Below are positions 57,572 to 62,419 of a stretch of 62,419 bases of DNA, piece after piece. The notes beneath the pieces were generated by a model that ran no database searches, had not been told where the DNA came from, and saw nothing but the letters and a program-made list of their open reading frames with translations. The first letter of the stretch is position 1, and the number at the start of each line of letters is the position of its first letter. Made by a program: the position numbers and the translations under genes. Source of the DNA: an uncultured Heliobacteriaceae bacterium (lineage in GTDB: Bacteria > Acidobacteriota > Blastocatellia > RBC074); the NCBI GenBank assembly GCA_964493645.1, contig CAZBPH010000001.1, positions 7,974 to 70,392 of the forward strand. Reading direction: 5' to 3'.

Positions 57572-58786
57572 ATGCACAAAGATGAAGTCATCTCGAACCA
57601 GCTGAAGATTCTCGCCAATCAGGATCAGATCAAGCAGAATCAGAACAAGCTGGATCTGCTGCTGGCCAGTCAGGAAACCATTCTGGCCAATCAGGAACAG
57701 ATCCGTGAGCTTGAAGCCAAACTCAGCCAGTTGCTGGCGGAAGAAGAGCGCCTGACTGACGAGTATGATCCTTTTGGCGAAATGATCGGCACAAGTGATG
57801 AGTTTCAGCGAGTGCTGCGCGAGGCTTTGAATGTCGCCGCGACCGATACGACCGTCCTGCTGCGTGGCGAAACCGGAACCGGTAAAGAGCTGCTGGCTCA
57901 TGCGATTCACTCGCACAGCCCGCGTAAACACCGGCCTTTCATCATCGTCAACTGCGCCGCCTTGCCGTCCGGCCTGATCGAGAGCGAACTGTTCGGCTAT
58001 GAAAAGGGCGCCTTCACCGGGGCCTCACAGCGTAAAGCCGGGCGATTCGAACTTGCCGATGGCGGGACGATCTTCCTTGACGAGATCGGAGAGGTCCCGA
58101 TCGAGACCCAGGGCCGTTTTTTGCGCGTCATCCAGACAGGCATTTTCGAGAGACTGGGAAGCACCAAAAGCGTCCGCGTCAAGGTTCGTATCATCGCCGC
58201 AACCAACCAGCCGCTCGAACGGCTCGTCAGCCAAAGGAAATTTCGCGCCGATCTGTACTACCGTCTGAACATCTTTCCCATTACTCTGCCGCCACTGCGC
58301 GAGCGAACCGCCGACATTCCTCTGCTGGTTCGCTACTTCGTCAAAAAATACAGCGTCCGTTTCAACCGCGTGATCAACTCGATCCACGAGCAATCATTGC
58401 TGGCGCTGCAGGATTATCACTGGCCCGGTAATATCCGCGAGCTGGAAAATATGATCGAACGTTCGATTTTGACTGCCGAGTCCGATCTCCTCAAGATAAA
58501 ATTGCCAGACACAAATCTCGAACCCGCGATTTCAATCAATGACGGCCTGAACGATATAATACCTGCATCGTTAATCAACCCTTCCGCGCCGGATCACCCG
58601 TTCAAATCGATCACCCTGGCTGAAAACGAACGCGCCCTCATCCAGCGAACCCTTCATCACACAGGCGGTCGTATCTCGGGGCCGAATGGCGCCGCTGAAA
58701 TTCTGGGTCTTCCAGTGTCGACTCTGCGCAGCCGTATTAAAAAACTGGGCCTCAACAGCACCCCTCATCAACTCAATAATCGATAG
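57572..58786 (+). CDS. Sigma54-dependent transcriptional activator (bEBP) with a short coiled-coil N-terminus in place of a sensor domain
   Basis: 404-aa ORF with Walker A GETGTGKE, the sigma54-contact loop GAFTGA, Walker [10 protein letters not shown] and a C-terminal Fis-type HTH ([25 protein letters not shown]). Residues 8-45 are heptads of the form x-N-Q-x-x-I/L-x. Confidence 0.9.
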
Positions 58787-58805
58787 CGACATATAACGAG
58801 CTGGC

Positions 58806-58837
58806 GCGATATATCGCCAAAATGGCCATATATCGCC
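58806..58837. promoter_or_regulatory. Candidate upstream activator sequences (UAS) for the bEBP
   Basis: A perfect 12-bp palindrome GCGATATATCGC lies at 58806-58817. The 10-nt ATATATCGCC occurs at 58809-58818 and again at 58828-58837, a 19-bp offset. The sites are about 100-135 bp upstream of the -24 element. Confidence 0.45.
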
Positions 58838-59370: not shown

Positions 59371-59419
59371 AAAGATCTACCTGCCCACCTCTCTCAAAAA
59401 AATAAGGAGACCTTCCAAG

Positions 59420-62419
59420 ATGCGTAGAGTTCCATTCCTGACTGCGACGCTCTGCCTGATGCTGTGTTCAACTATGACCGCGACCGCGCAACAGGCCACG
59501 ACAGCGACGCTGGGCGGCCGGGTGACGGATCCGACAGGAGCTGTGATTTCAGGCGCGAAGATAACGATTATCCAAAAGGCCGTAGGCGTAAAGCGCGAGA
59601 CCGTGACGAACAGTGATGGCCTGTATGTGCTGACAAACCTGGCGCCTGGAGAATACGAAGTCAGGATCGAGGCCAGGAGCTTCCCCAAGACTCTGGTCCG
59701 CATGATCGACCTGCAGGTTGGGCAACAGGCCATATTTGACGGTACACTGGAAGTCAGCGGGCCGACTGAGACGATCATGATGGTTCGCGACGGCAGCGCG
59801 GCATCGGTCAACACGAGTTCCTCGATTGTCGACGGCGTTGTTGACTCGGGTTCAATCCAGACACTGCCGCTCAACGGCCGCAATTATCTGGAGCTGGCGC
59901 TTTTAATACCCGGCAATGTTCCGGCGCCGAACTTCGATCCGACCAAGACAAGCAGCGTGATCATCTCATCGGCTGGACAGCTCGGCCGCGGAGGCAACAT
60001 CACAATCGACGGAACGGACAATAATGATGACGCGGTGGGCGGGCCACTGCTGAACATCTCACAGGACGCGGTGCAGGAGTTTCAGATTGCTACAAATCGT
60101 TACTCCGCAGAGCTCGGGCGGTCGGCCGGATCAGTCATCAACGTCGTGACGAGGTCAGGGAGCAACGACATGCATGGCTCCTTCTCATTTTTCGAGCGCG
60201 ACCGGAGATTGCAGGGACTGCCCGCGACATATGACCGCGGCAGCGATCAAAAACCTCCATTCGACCGGCAGCAATATTCGGCAACGCTTGGCGGCCCAAT
60301 CAAGAAGGATCGTGCGTGGTTGTTTGGCGCGATCGAGTATCGCAATCAGGACGGCGCAACCCTGGTCGGTGAGCGTGATGTCGCGGCGCGGCAGATCCGA
60401 CGCAGCTTTGCTCCCGCTCCGCACGATGACCTGCTCGGTCTATTGCGCGGCGACTGGAAACCCAATGACAATGACAGCCTGAGTCTCCGCTATGCGATCG
60501 AACGGCTGGAGGACACCGGCGCGACAAAGCTTGATCGCGCCATCGGATCGGCCTCGCAACGCCAGAAACTGAACAACAACCATCAGGCGTTCTTAACGAA
60601 CTGGACTCACGTCCTTTCCCCGGCAATCGTCAACAGTTTCAGTTTCAGCATCAACAATTTCGAAAACACCACGGTCCCGCTTTCGACAGCCCCGCAATTG
60701 ACCTTTCCGTCGATACTGGATGGCGTCTCGTTCAGGGTGCCGCAAGCGACGAAGGTCAACAGGCTTCAATTTTCAGATGCGCTGTCGGTGGTCCGGGGCG
60801 CGCACACGCTCAAATTCGGAGGCGACTATCAGCGCATCGATTCGCTCTTTGACCTCGGCGTGTTTCAGCAGGGTCGCATCGAATTCGTCCAGGATTTCGC
60901 ACATGCCGACTTCAACGGTGACGGACGGATAGACGACAACGATCTGCTATTCGCCGTCACGCTGCGCAGTTCGAAGCCGTCGCAGTCTCTGCTGATCGGG
61001 GACGCCGACAACAATCACTTTGCGTTCTTCGCGCAGGATGACTGGCGCGTATCGAGAAATCTGACGCTCAATCTAGGCCTGCGCTATGAACTGGACACTG
61101 ACCTCAACAACAACAACTGGTACGCGAACCGGAACCCGATAGTCGAATCGTTCTATCGAGGCGAGCGCAAGCGGGACACGAACAATTTCGCGCCGCGCGT
61201 CGGATTCAACTGGGCGTCCGATGACGGCAGGACGAGCCTCCACGGCGGATACGGAATCTACTACGACCGCATCACGATTCAGATCGCATCGCTCGAACGC
61301 GGGCTTGACGGTCGCGCCCTGGCGATCGAGGTTCGCGCCGGAAATGTGCTGACGGACCCTACGGGCGCTCCGATCTTCATCGATCCCGCGACGGGCAGGT
61401 TTCGACCCGGCGCTCCAACTTTCAGCGCACCTTTCACCGGATTTATTCTGCCGGGAGCCGGCGCTTCGGGAATCAACATCATCGACAACGACATGCAAAA
61501 CCCGATGGTGCAGCAGTTCAACCTGGGCATCCAGCGCGAACTGCCGGGGGATCTCCTGCTGCGCGCTGATTACCTGCACAATTTCGGAACTCGCTTCATC
61601 ATAGGACGCACGATCGGCGTAGTGGACAATCCCGTGGTAGGCGGGCCGGATCGCGTCGTCAATCTGGAATCGAGCGTCAAAACGAAATACGACGGGCTGC
61701 TGCTGAGTCTCGAGAAGCGTTTTTCGAGGCATTATCAGTTGCGCGCGTCGTATACCTTGTCGAAAGCCTTCAACTATGCGAACGACGATCAGATTCCGTT
61801 CTCGAACGGGCCGGTCGATCCGAACAATACTCAACTCGAATACGGCCCCACGCCGAATGATCGCCGCCATTACTTCACGTTTTCGGGCGCGGTTGAATTG
61901 CCGTACGGCTTTCAGATCGCGCCGATCGTGACGCTGGCCTCGGGCGTGCCGATGGACATTCTGCTGCCCGATGCGAGCACGCGCATACCAGTGTTGCAGC
62001 GCAATGCCGGTGGCCGCCTGTTCAACACCGGCTCCGATCTCAACAGATTCCTGACGCAGCTCAACTCGGCGGGCGGCGTCAACGGGCAGCCTTTACCGCT
62101 GGTTCGTGATGATGCGCAGTTCAATGACCGTTTCAGTTCGGTCGACCTGCGCCTGTCGAAAGCATTTCGATTGGGTGACAAGGCGCGGCTGGAACCCATC
62201 GTCGAGATCTTCAACCTATTGAACGTGACCAATATCCTGGGCGTCTCGAACGTCAATTATTCGGGCTTCTCGAACGTGCTTATTCGAGACAGCAGCGACC
62301 CGGGCGACGCAGGCTATCTGAGATCATCGAGCTTCGGGCGTCCGGTAACGACGGCCGGCGGAGTCTTCGGGTCGGGCGGACCGCGCGCCTTCCAGCTGGC
62401 AGTGAAGTTCACGTTTTAG
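59420..62419 (+). CDS. TonB-dependent receptor-like outer-membrane protein with N-terminal carboxypeptidase-regulatory-like domain
   Basis: 999-aa ORF ending with TAG at the last base of the window, with AAGGAG RBS and signal peptide MRRVPFLTATLCLMLCSTMTATA/Q. It has GGRVTDPTGAVISGAKITI..TNSDGLYVLTNLAPGEYEVRIEARSF, the plug-like TLPLNGRNY and a C-terminal Phe (AVKFTF). Confidence 0.9.
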   Translation: MRRVPFLTATLCLMLCSTMTATAQQATTATLGGRVTDPTGAVISGAKITIIQKAVGVKRETVTNSDGLYVLTNLAPGEYEVRIEARSFPKTLVRMIDLQVGQQAIFDGTLEVSGPTETIMMVRDGSAASVNTSSSIVDGVVDSGSIQTLPLNGRNYLELALLIPGNVPAPNFDPTKTSSVIISSAGQLGRGGNITIDGTDNNDDAVGGPLLNISQDAVQEFQIATNRYSAELGRSAGSVINVVTRSGSNDMHGSFSFFERDRRLQGLPATYDRGSDQKPPFDRQQYSATLGGPIKKDRAWLFGAIEYRNQDGATLVGERDVAARQIRRSFAPAPHDDLLGLLRGDWKPNDNDSLSLRYAIERLEDTGATKLDRAIGSASQRQKLNNNHQAFLTNWTHVLSPAIVNSFSFSINNFENTTVPLSTAPQLTFPSILDGVSFRVPQATKVNRLQFSDALSVVRGAHTLKFGGDYQRIDSLFDLGVFQQGRIEFVQDFAHADFNGDGRIDDNDLLFAVTLRSSKPSQSLLIGDADNNHFAFFAQDDWRVSRNLTLNLGLRYELDTDLNNNNWYANRNPIVESFYRGERKRDTNNFAPRVGFNWASDDGRTSLHGGYGIYYDRITIQIASLERGLDGRALAIEVRAGNVLTDPTGAPIFIDPATGRFRPGAPTFSAPFTGFILPGAGASGINIIDNDMQNPMVQQFNLGIQRELPGDLLLRADYLHNFGTRFIIGRTIGVVDNPVVGGPDRVVNLESSVKTKYDGLLLSLEKRFSRHYQLRASYTLSKAFNYANDDQIPFSNGPVDPNNTQLEYGPTPNDRRHYFTFSGAVELPYGFQIAPIVTLASGVPMDILLPDASTRIPVLQRNAGGRLFNTGSDLNRFLTQLNSAGGVNGQPLPLVRDDAQFNDRFSSVDLRLSKAFRLGDKARLEPIVEIFNLLNVTNILGVSNVNYSGFSNVLIRDSSDPGDAGYLRSSSFGRPVTTAGGVFGSGGPRAFQLAVKFTF

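Follow-up and report, generated by a model that had tools for sequence, protein, structure and literature searches.

Homologous asparagine-rich, predicted coiled-coil helices in the activator and the putative target operon of a conserved sigma-54 uptake module of Acidobacteriota

For the activators of sigma-54-dependent transcription, two kinds of control are known, namely globular sensor domains at the N-terminus and, in a small number of examples, partner proteins that are unrelated to the activator. In NtrC1 and DctD, a coiled coil located N-terminal to the AAA+ domain can hold dimers in a state that is incompetent for ring formation, and the molbindin (Mop)/ModE pair provides an example of a small stand-alone protein that has a paralogue in the regulatory domain of an uptake-operon transcription factor. 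The present analysis deals with a locus at the end of a 62,419-nucleotide stretch of DNA (contig CAZBPH010000001.1 of assembly GCA_964493645.1; the whole stretch is referred to as the window), in which a sigma-54 activator gene is followed by the gene of a mini-protein of 85 amino acids and by a gene encoding a TonB-dependent-receptor-like barrel. The systems PspF/PspA and HrpS/HrpV likewise lack a globular sensor in cis and encode a small helical candidate regulator acting in trans within the sigma-54 target operon (PMC7057263). The known trans-acting partners of such activators, for instance PspA and HrpV, are all negative regulators (PMC7057263).

Judged from its sequence, the locus represents a real, conserved and undescribed variant of sigma-54 control, the mechanism of which we infer below. 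Two conclusions are considered to be solid at this level. The locus belongs to a conserved, predicted sigma-54 uptake regulon of Blastocatellia-type Acidobacteriota that consists of a dedicated activator, an array of three dyads and an operon of mini-protein and transporter genes, and the sole N-terminal module of the activator is a predicted helix of approximately 60 residues that is homologous to the mini-protein.

The Pfam profile Sigma54_activat (PF00158) matched residues 71 to 237 of the activator with an E-value of 3.7e-70, AAA_lid_14 matched residues 243 to 310 and HTH_8 residues 349 to 392 (E 6e-7), the latter region being covered by helices in the AlphaFold2 model; all structure predictions are monomer models. 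The sequence contains the Walker A motif GETGTGKE and the GAFTGA loop, and the C-terminal helix-turn-helix occurs together with upstream dyads and a -24/-12 promoter, and on these sequence features the protein is assigned to the enhancer-binding protein family, i.e. to the sigma-54 activators. Pfam provided no match for residues 1 to 70, and the NCBIfam search yielded sub-threshold matches to generic activators only and none for residues 1 to 65. AlphaFold2 predicted a single helix for residues 3 to 64, with block means of the predicted local distance difference test (pLDDT) of about 76 to 87 over residues 1 to 50, a decrease of confidence toward the linker and a low-confidence hinge at residues 60 to 70. 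The complete AAA+/GAFTGA core with a Fis-type helix-turn-helix, the absence of a globular sensor domain in front of it and the heptad coiled coil in its place, all of which had been read from the DNA in an initial annotation of the locus, were thus borne out by the domain searches, direct reading and the predicted helix. A protein identical to the activator (P0152, 100%) was found on an NCBI contig in the full-length activator search.

The N-terminal helix of the activator and the mini-protein are built from the same heptad, termed ANQ here, with Ile or Leu at position a, Asn at position d, an invariable Gln at position e and frequent Leu and Ala at positions b and c. The mini-protein comprises 12 heptads, nine of which carry Asn at position d (residues 9, 16, 23, 37, 44, 51, 61, 68 and 75, each preceded by Ile or Leu at a distance of three residues), and is interrupted by a single 3-residue insertion at KLDALLANQ. 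In the activator, the respective residues are N9, N16 and N23, followed by S33 and N40, and a 3-residue insertion (KLDLLLASQ) is located at the same relative place as in the mini-protein. The repeat continues in register with L47, L54 and L61 into a B-linker-like helix of ordinary heptads with Leu at position d, which extends up to the AAA+ domain; since the activator repeat passes into these canonical heptads, the register is fixed. A BLASTP comparison aligned residues 4 to 57 of the activator with residues 32 to 85 of the mini-protein without gaps at 50% identity (E 8e-13), and on this alignment both are regarded as true homologues, with a paralogy well beyond chance. Residues 3 to 84 of the mini-protein were modelled by AlphaFold2 as one continuous helix (pLDDT 97).

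The open reading frame (ORF) of the mini-protein is preceded by the ribosome-binding site GGGAGA at a distance of 9 nucleotides. The ratio of nonsynonymous to synonymous substitution rates (dN/dS, Nei-Gojobori method) was 0.20 for the mini-protein genes of the window and of L006, the syntenic locus of another genome, and 0.05 to 0.18 when the last 37 codons were compared with more distant loci, while codons 1 to 70 of the activator gave values of 0.06 to 0.12, similar to those of the AAA+ core. According to these ratios, purifying selection acts on the mini-protein ORF as well as on the activator N-terminus. Together with the conservation, they therefore argue that the mini-protein ORF is a real gene and that the N-terminal part of the activator is a domain maintained by selection and no assembly artefact. 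No Pfam family, and hence no PspA_IM30, matched the mini-protein at E<=0.1, NCBIfam gave a noise-level match only, and a sequence search of PDB with an ANQ profile provided noise-level matches to the Beclin-1 coiled coil and no related solved structure. A literature search with ANQ motif strings returned place names only. The exact 85-residue sequence was absent from a collection of 15 billion proteins that contains the activator of the same contig; the small ORF was possibly not called in the source annotation.

The conservation of the module was examined by scanning a single genome of each species; the genes adjacent to the compared loci were defined by a simple longest-ORF rule, the ORFs were scored by hidden Markov models and phmmer, and the taxon labels were those of the records of metagenome-assembled genomes. 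The scan resulted in 37 loci with mini-protein homologues from Acidobacteriota, Planctomycetota, Abditibacteriota, Armatimonadota and Bacteroidota and from two metagenome-assembled genomes labelled as Heliobacteria. Six other species-level genomes of Acidobacteriota share the order of activator, mini-protein and transporter genes, with ANQ activators of 395 to 424 amino acids encoded co-linearly in L006, L007, L008, L010, L014 and L016, and the synteny of L006 with the window includes a divergently oriented GH88 (glycoside hydrolase family 88) gene. Conserved co-occurrence in related genomes had been named by the initial annotation as a check on its proposal, which withstands it. Additionally, the full-length activator search detected more than 20 further clusters of approximately 400 amino acids with a near-invariant ANQ N-terminus, and this N-terminus is nearly invariant in about 25 homologues. 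A shorter form of the activator (368 to 373 amino acids) possesses just about 35 ANQ residues. The assumption that the fusion of ANQ to an activator is unique or a recent chimera was rejected in view of the many conserved ANQ activators that were detected both by scanning the genomes and by searching with the full-length protein. Word-indexed searches with residues 1 to 75 of the activator and with the mini-protein detected only P0001 and only seven small 'hypothetical' proteins, respectively.

The regulatory DNA in the spacer of 326 nucleotides between the activator gene and the mini-protein ORF is conserved as well. The sequence TGGCATTTAAATTGCT represents the sole exact match to TGGCAY-N5-TTGCW in the window (TGGCAT-N5-TTGCT). 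As a scan for -24/-12 elements with one mismatch yielded five sites in 62 kb compared to 4.6 expected ones, the match is weak when taken alone, and its value derives from its position and from its conservation in other genomes. A single site of the type YGGC-N6-AATTGCW is located in the equivalent intergenic region of 14 of the 16 receptor-type or activator-type loci, 55 to 321 nucleotides in front of the mini-protein gene, where about 0.2 sites per region are expected from the background. Farther upstream, the window contains the weak dyad GCGACATATAAC (58786-58797) and the two strong dyads GCGATATATCGC (58806-58817) and GCCATATATCGC (58825-58836), the latter two being the only matches in the window with no or one mismatch. 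The dyads are centred at positions -148, -128 and -108 relative to the start of the -24 element and are spaced by 19 to 20 bp. All three GCGATATATCGC-like dyads were present at about these positions in 9 of 15 related loci that were scored, and the remaining six retain a subset of the positions (two sites, or extra or shifted ones), with an offset of approximately 10 bp in L043. The dyad background amounts to 0.58 hits per kb, and the exact sequence GCGAWATWTCGC occurred in 9 of the 44 fetched loci, solely upstream of the mini-protein gene. Judging from how activators of this type work, three dyads would accommodate three dimers and thereby one hexamer. An A-tract combined with a TTGAA-N4-TTG element between the dyads and the promoter may be a DNA-bending or IHF-like (integration host factor) site. 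By eye and without scoring, strings resembling gaaaaaaTTTaCTCTT ... TTGAAnnnnTTG were seen at the matching relative place in related upstream sequences.

The receptor gene starts 49 nucleotides downstream of the mini-protein ORF, and its stop codon ends on the last base of the window. The deduced protein carries a signal peptide and matched OMP_b-brl_4 (E 9e-99), CarboxypepD_reg (E 5e-18) and TonB_dep_Rec_b-barrel (E 1e-7) in Pfam, the barrel matches corresponding to the 22-strand barrel domain of TonB-dependent receptors; a Plug domain was not detected by Pfam at E<=0.1, and NCBIfam provided a weak alignment of residues 193 to 250 to the plug region of PqqU. An orthologue of the receptor is encoded downstream of the mini-protein gene in L006, L009, L010, L011, L014, L015, L021 and L037. 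The gene order proposed by the initial annotation, with a -24/-12 promoter that opens the next transcription unit, a protein of 85 amino acids composed of the same heptads and a CarboxypepD_reg-containing TonB-dependent receptor, is recovered by these results, the receptor as a TonB-dependent-receptor-like barrel, and the repeat has also remained without a named domain in Pfam, NCBIfam and the PDB sequence search. The features of the locus, together with related activators described below, are compiled in Table 1.

Table 1. Features of the sigma-54 module in the window and flavoprotein-type activator genes of related loci. Positions refer to the window unless a locus is given.
Feature	Position	Strand	Basis
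Sigma-70-like promoter candidate TTGTCA-18-TATATT, 5' of the activator gene	57503..57532	+	Consensus scan, 10/12 matches
Sigma-54 enhancer-binding activator gene, 404 amino acids	57572..58786	+	Pfam Sigma54_activat, AAA_lid_14, HTH_8
Predicted ANQ heptad coiled-coil domain, activator residues 1-65	57572..57766	+	AlphaFold2 helix, homology to mini-protein
GAFTGA sigma-54 contact loop, activator residues 146-151	58007..58024	+	Direct sequence reading
Fis-type helix-turn-helix, activator residues 349-392	58616..58747	+	Pfam HTH_8, AlphaFold2 helices
Putative upstream activating sequence, three dyads	58786..58836	+	Dyad scan, conserved spacing in related loci
A-tract plus TTGAA-N4-TTG element	58876..58913	+	By eye, unscored
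Predicted sigma-54 (-24/-12) promoter TGGCATTTAAATTGCT	58939..58954	+	Exact consensus match, conserved position
ANQ mini-protein gene, 85 amino acids	59113..59370	+	ORF, AlphaFold2 helix, homologues, dN/dS
TonB-dependent-receptor-like outer-membrane barrel, 999 amino acids	59420..62419	+	Pfam
Flavoprotein-type activator, L009	195-2933		N-terminus like Trp-halogenase or aromatic-hydroxylase
Flavoprotein-type activator, L015	4917-7562	-	N-terminus like Trp-halogenase or aromatic-hydroxylase
Flavoprotein-type activator, L024	4611-7283	-	N-terminus like Trp-halogenase or aromatic-hydroxylase
Flavoprotein-type activator, L037	4843-7494	-	N-terminus like Trp-halogenase or aromatic-hydroxylase

A comparison with the described systems revealed partial similarities in each case. 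The likeness to PspF/PspA that was pointed out in the initial annotation holds for the regulatory logic, since the putative partner is encoded in the target operon, its gene being the first one after the sigma-54 promoter in the window as well as in L006, L007, L008, L010, L014 and L016. It does not hold for family membership: unlike PspF, the activator bears an N-terminal ANQ helix that is homologous to its putative partner, and the mini-protein lacks a match to PspA_IM30 or any other Pfam family, whereas PspA binds to the surface of the AAA+ domain and shares no coiled coil with its activator. As far as domain composition tells, the locus is therefore no PspF/PspA system, as its activator possesses an N-terminal module and its putative partner does not resemble PspA. 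The closest relatives of the AAA+/HTH core without ANQ repeats are activators of the XylR/DmpR type, with 51 to 57% identity, and XylR_N and V4R domains are present in the next-closest homologues P0216 to P0234. The linker helix of XylR/DmpR aligns with the helix C-terminal to the ANQ part of the activator, but Pfam detected neither XylR_N nor V4R in this protein, in which the sensor is replaced by approximately 40 residues of ANQ heptads; in the absence of a V4R domain it is therefore not regarded as a member of this group. As in NtrC1 and DctD, the coiled coil directly precedes the AAA+ domain, but a receiver domain and a phosphorylation input are missing here. The layout is moreover analogous to that of molbindin and ModE, although the two systems are related neither in fold nor in ligand or class of regulator.

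The compared loci also included variants in which one element of the module is exchanged or missing. Activators of 880 to 912 amino acids encoded in L009, L015, L024 and L037 and on the P0005 contig are devoid of ANQ repeats and possess an N-terminus of about 550 residues resembling FAD-dependent (flavin adenine dinucleotide) proteins of the Trp-halogenase type. We know of no description of a flavoprotein-like sensor domain in sigma-54 activators. A rough neighbour-joining tree, calculated without support values, placed the flavoprotein-type activators inside the ANQ clade; an ancestral state of these proteins was accordingly not upheld, though the exchange may have gone in either direction. 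The locus L043 (P0213) encodes a short-ANQ activator and contains dyads, a good -24/-12 site and genes for a receptor and an amino-acid permease, and in L044 the mini-protein gene is located between two FG-GAP/ASPIC genes and is oriented divergently from the activator gene. The 'mini-protein' P0001 of L001 (74 amino acids, 7936-8227, on a contig shared with L013) turned out to be a hybrid of activator and mini-protein: its gene corresponds, at the 5' end and in the DNA preceding it, to the activator gene of the syntenic locus L008 (6457-6644) and, at the 3' end, to the mini-protein gene of L008 (8046-8239). This structure fits a recombination event in which the ANQ array of the activator gene was joined to that of the mini-protein gene, so that approximately 1.4 kb comprising the activator core, the dyads and the sigma-54 promoter would have been deleted. 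In L001, the receptor gene following P0001 is truncated at 76 codons. The metagenome-assembled genomes containing L015 and L021, labelled as Heliomicrobium or Heliobacteriaceae, contain a receptor module of the acidobacterial type, including the same dyads, and the respective contigs may be mis-binned.

The mini-protein is part of a wider family. A profile search in 1.8 billion cluster representatives resulted in 696 matches at E<=1e-3 and 185 matches at E<=1e-10, nearly all with a length of 50 to 250 amino acids, unannotated and designated as hypothetical in the source annotations. Outside the sigma-54 module, the mini-protein gene usually precedes, or is located among, genes of SsuA-type ABC (ATP-binding cassette) transporters (8 to 12 loci), and genes for FG-GAP/ASPIC proteins with or without TPR (tetratricopeptide repeats) are adjacent in 12 loci. 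Further neighbours encode permeases of the MFS (major facilitator superfamily), APC (amino acid-polyamine-organocation) or TauE type, porins and deiodinase-like or AhpD-like redox proteins. The SsuA-type (sulfonate/nitrate) ABC genes adjoin mini-protein genes of Planctomycetota and Bacteroidota in L012, L017, L020, L027, L030, L039, L041 and L002 to L005. The mini-proteins are almost free of Cys and Met, which might be a hint of sulphur-limitation regulons. A 'halogen' theme, suggested by matches resembling Trp-halogenases, deiodinases and haloperoxidases and by halide-binding layers of Asn at position d, was dropped, as these are generic fold-level Pfam matches. ANQ repeats were additionally found fused to a deiodinase-like redoxin, an acylphosphatase, a phosphopantetheine-carrier domain and an ankyrin protein of 2230 amino acids (P0031, P0108, P0010 and P0095), and these fusions to unrelated enzymes would fit a portable oligomerisation module. 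The ANQ part of the fusion proteins gave sub-threshold Pfam matches to DUF7262. In the sigma-54-linked mini-proteins, 27 of the 31 invariant columns fall within residues 44 to 83, to which the activator helix can be aligned. These mini-proteins share a C-terminal extension that mostly reads EIxSLLAx (with variants such as EIMTLLAQ and EIRSLVSK) and resembles KLSQLLAEE of the activator, and mini-proteins from elsewhere mostly end with KILAK. By these signatures, the sigma-54-linked mini-proteins are a distinct subfamily.

With respect to the function of the module, we tentatively favour a model, suggested by sequence and by analogy, in which the mini-protein exerts feedback by binding to the activator, although its chances fall somewhat short of even. 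Three activator dimers bound to the three dyads would rearrange into a hexameric ring, as deduced from known activators, and the N-terminal coiled coil would govern the transition from dimer to ring in the manner of the linker coiled coils of NtrC1/DctD and XylR/DmpR. The mini-protein would then bind to the activator, either by forming a mixed coiled coil, which would be the direct hetero-oligomerisation suggested in the initial annotation, or, like PspA, on the AAA+ domain; this is the least certain step. The resulting feedback would most probably be negative, with the mini-protein acting as an anti-activator, the sign being a guess from precedent. Binding is proposed because the two helices match in register and without gaps, share the position of the insertion and carry Gln uniformly at position e, because the linked mini-proteins display a subfamily signature, and because of the fusion itself, as an ANQ unit fused to the activator can be taken as a 'Rosetta-stone' hint of functional interaction. 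As position e is always occupied by Gln, a charge-based bar to mixed pairing does not exist.

Several observations weigh against this feedback model, and most of them at the same time speak for the alternative that there is no direct link. According to this alternative, which appears rather unlikely but is the strongest competitor, the mini-protein would be a transport accessory, i.e. a scaffold, a chaperone or a transporter regulator, and the ANQ helix of the activator a borrowed constitutive oligomerisation domain; a control of the operon via the amount of activator or another factor has a similarly modest probability. Across five phyla, mini-protein genes are typically the first genes of transporter operons without activators: those of Planctomycetota, Abditibacteriota, Armatimonadota and Bacteroidota stand at the head of clusters for ABC transporters, porins or other transporters, most of them have no activator within 8 kb, only L023 among these loci contains a nearby activator homologue, and no sigma-54 site with a score of at least 9/11 was present within 400 nucleotides upstream of the mini-protein gene outside the acidobacterial module. 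The use of ANQ as a generic add-on in other proteins likewise speaks for the alternative without a direct link. The flavoprotein-type loci retain the same dyads, promoter geometry, mini-protein gene and receptor gene, often followed by an MFS transporter gene, and homotypic pairing therefore cannot be the sole mode of action of the mini-protein. Conversely, neither the operon of L043 nor the rest of this 13-kb locus contains a mini-protein gene, and homotypic pairing is thus not the whole story for an ANQ activator either. It also counts against the feedback model that conservation is far higher in the activator N-terminus than in the mini-proteins and that covariation between them was not seen. 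The alternative without a direct link is opposed, however, by the constraint on the activator N-terminus, which equals that of the AAA+ core over a long divergence and exceeds the needs of a generic zipper, and by the distinct subfamily of activator-linked mini-proteins, whose conserved part mirrors the activator helix.

A further alternative, which we regard as unlikely, is that the ANQ coiled coil itself acts as a sensor, with the assembly of a polar-core and probably trimeric structure being set by chloride, nitrate or ionic conditions. It is equally doubtful that the activator N-terminus and the free mini-proteins answer the same signal independently of each other, as molbindin and ModE do in the case of molybdate. 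The trimeric stalks of autotransporter adhesins share the combination of an aliphatic residue at position a and Asn at position d in consecutive heptads, and the Asn layers of the stalks bind a central anion, identified as chloride (PMC13580157). A GCN4 variant with such a layer is unstable without chloride (PMC12933892). A sensory function would explain the occurrence of ANQ units both with and without activators, their location beside anion-type transporters (SsuA-type ABC, TauE, oxalate/formate-like MFS and alginate-type porins) and their fusion to unrelated enzymes. In contrast to the stalks, the ANQ proteins are predicted to be cytoplasmic, lack a signal peptide and possess Gln at position e and up to nine Asn layers in 12 heptads. 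Thr at position e (the NT motif) occurs in about half of the known cases (PMC13580157) and is absent from the ANQ heptads, in which the aliphatic a and the Asn at d are present. In addition to this deviation, the conserved Leu and Ala at positions b and c would not be explained, and a cytoplasmic chloride or nitrate signal for a TonB-type receptor is without precedent. The most specific version, in which the ANQ array would form an anion-dependent trimer with a polar core in the cytoplasm, representing a minimal ligand-sensing domain, and the free mini-proteins would serve as competitors or buffers, is considered to be quite improbable. Very improbable, finally, is a function of the small ORF as a cis-acting leader in which ribosome pausing at Asn and Gln codons reports the supply of amide amino acids and thus of nitrogen: Asn or Gln make up about one residue in four, the ORF is always the first one of the operon and sigma-54 is traditionally tied to nitrogen control, but the positions other than Asn and Gln (Ile/Leu at a, Ala, KLD and SLLA) are strongly conserved with dN/dS values of 0.05 to 0.2, the length of 55 to 170 amino acids is far above that of known leader peptides, the gap in front of the receptor gene contains neither a terminator nor an alternative hairpin, and in the activator the same sequence functions as an N-terminal protein domain.

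The module is located in a region of the window that is devoted to carbohydrate utilisation and includes genes for GH88, GH42 and GH20 enzymes, a giant protein with a GH94 domain, a ROK regulator and a second receptor. The giant protein (2978 amino acids, 42594-51530, plus strand) shows an architecture of the cyclic beta-1,2-glucan synthase type, with glucoamylase-like and GH94 domains. A PAP2-superfamily protein of 584 to 598 amino acids with a twin-arginine-type leader is encoded near the module in the window (53568-55322, plus strand), in L006 (2500-4254) and in L014 (13370-15166); the 584-residue protein of the window was rejected as a general partner, since homologues were found in L006 and L014 only. 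Sigma-70-like sites were not more frequent in the region than in shuffled sequences, and the candidate in front of the activator gene is a consensus match alone. An Rfam scan of the whole window revealed no family above threshold, and the window does not contain an rpoN gene.

These data describe a sigma-54 activator that differs from the known ones in that its regulatory module is a single predicted coiled-coil helix with a polar core, paralogous to the first product of the operon under its putative control. In activators that are otherwise orthologous and act through the same DNA sites, a large flavoprotein-like sensor takes the place of this helix, the two having apparently been swapped during evolution. 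Should the mini-protein and the helix interact, the module would represent a highly compact form of feedback and an example from nature of regulation by coiled-coil exchange, and its fixed array of three dyads would offer a ready-made system for the assembly of dimers into a hexamer. The ANQ mini-proteins represent a sizeable, unannotated family without a solved structure that heads nutrient-uptake operons in little-studied phyla of soil and freshwater. If the reading as an anion sensor should be true, they would define a new class of one-helix sensors with about 700 cluster representatives in at least five phyla.

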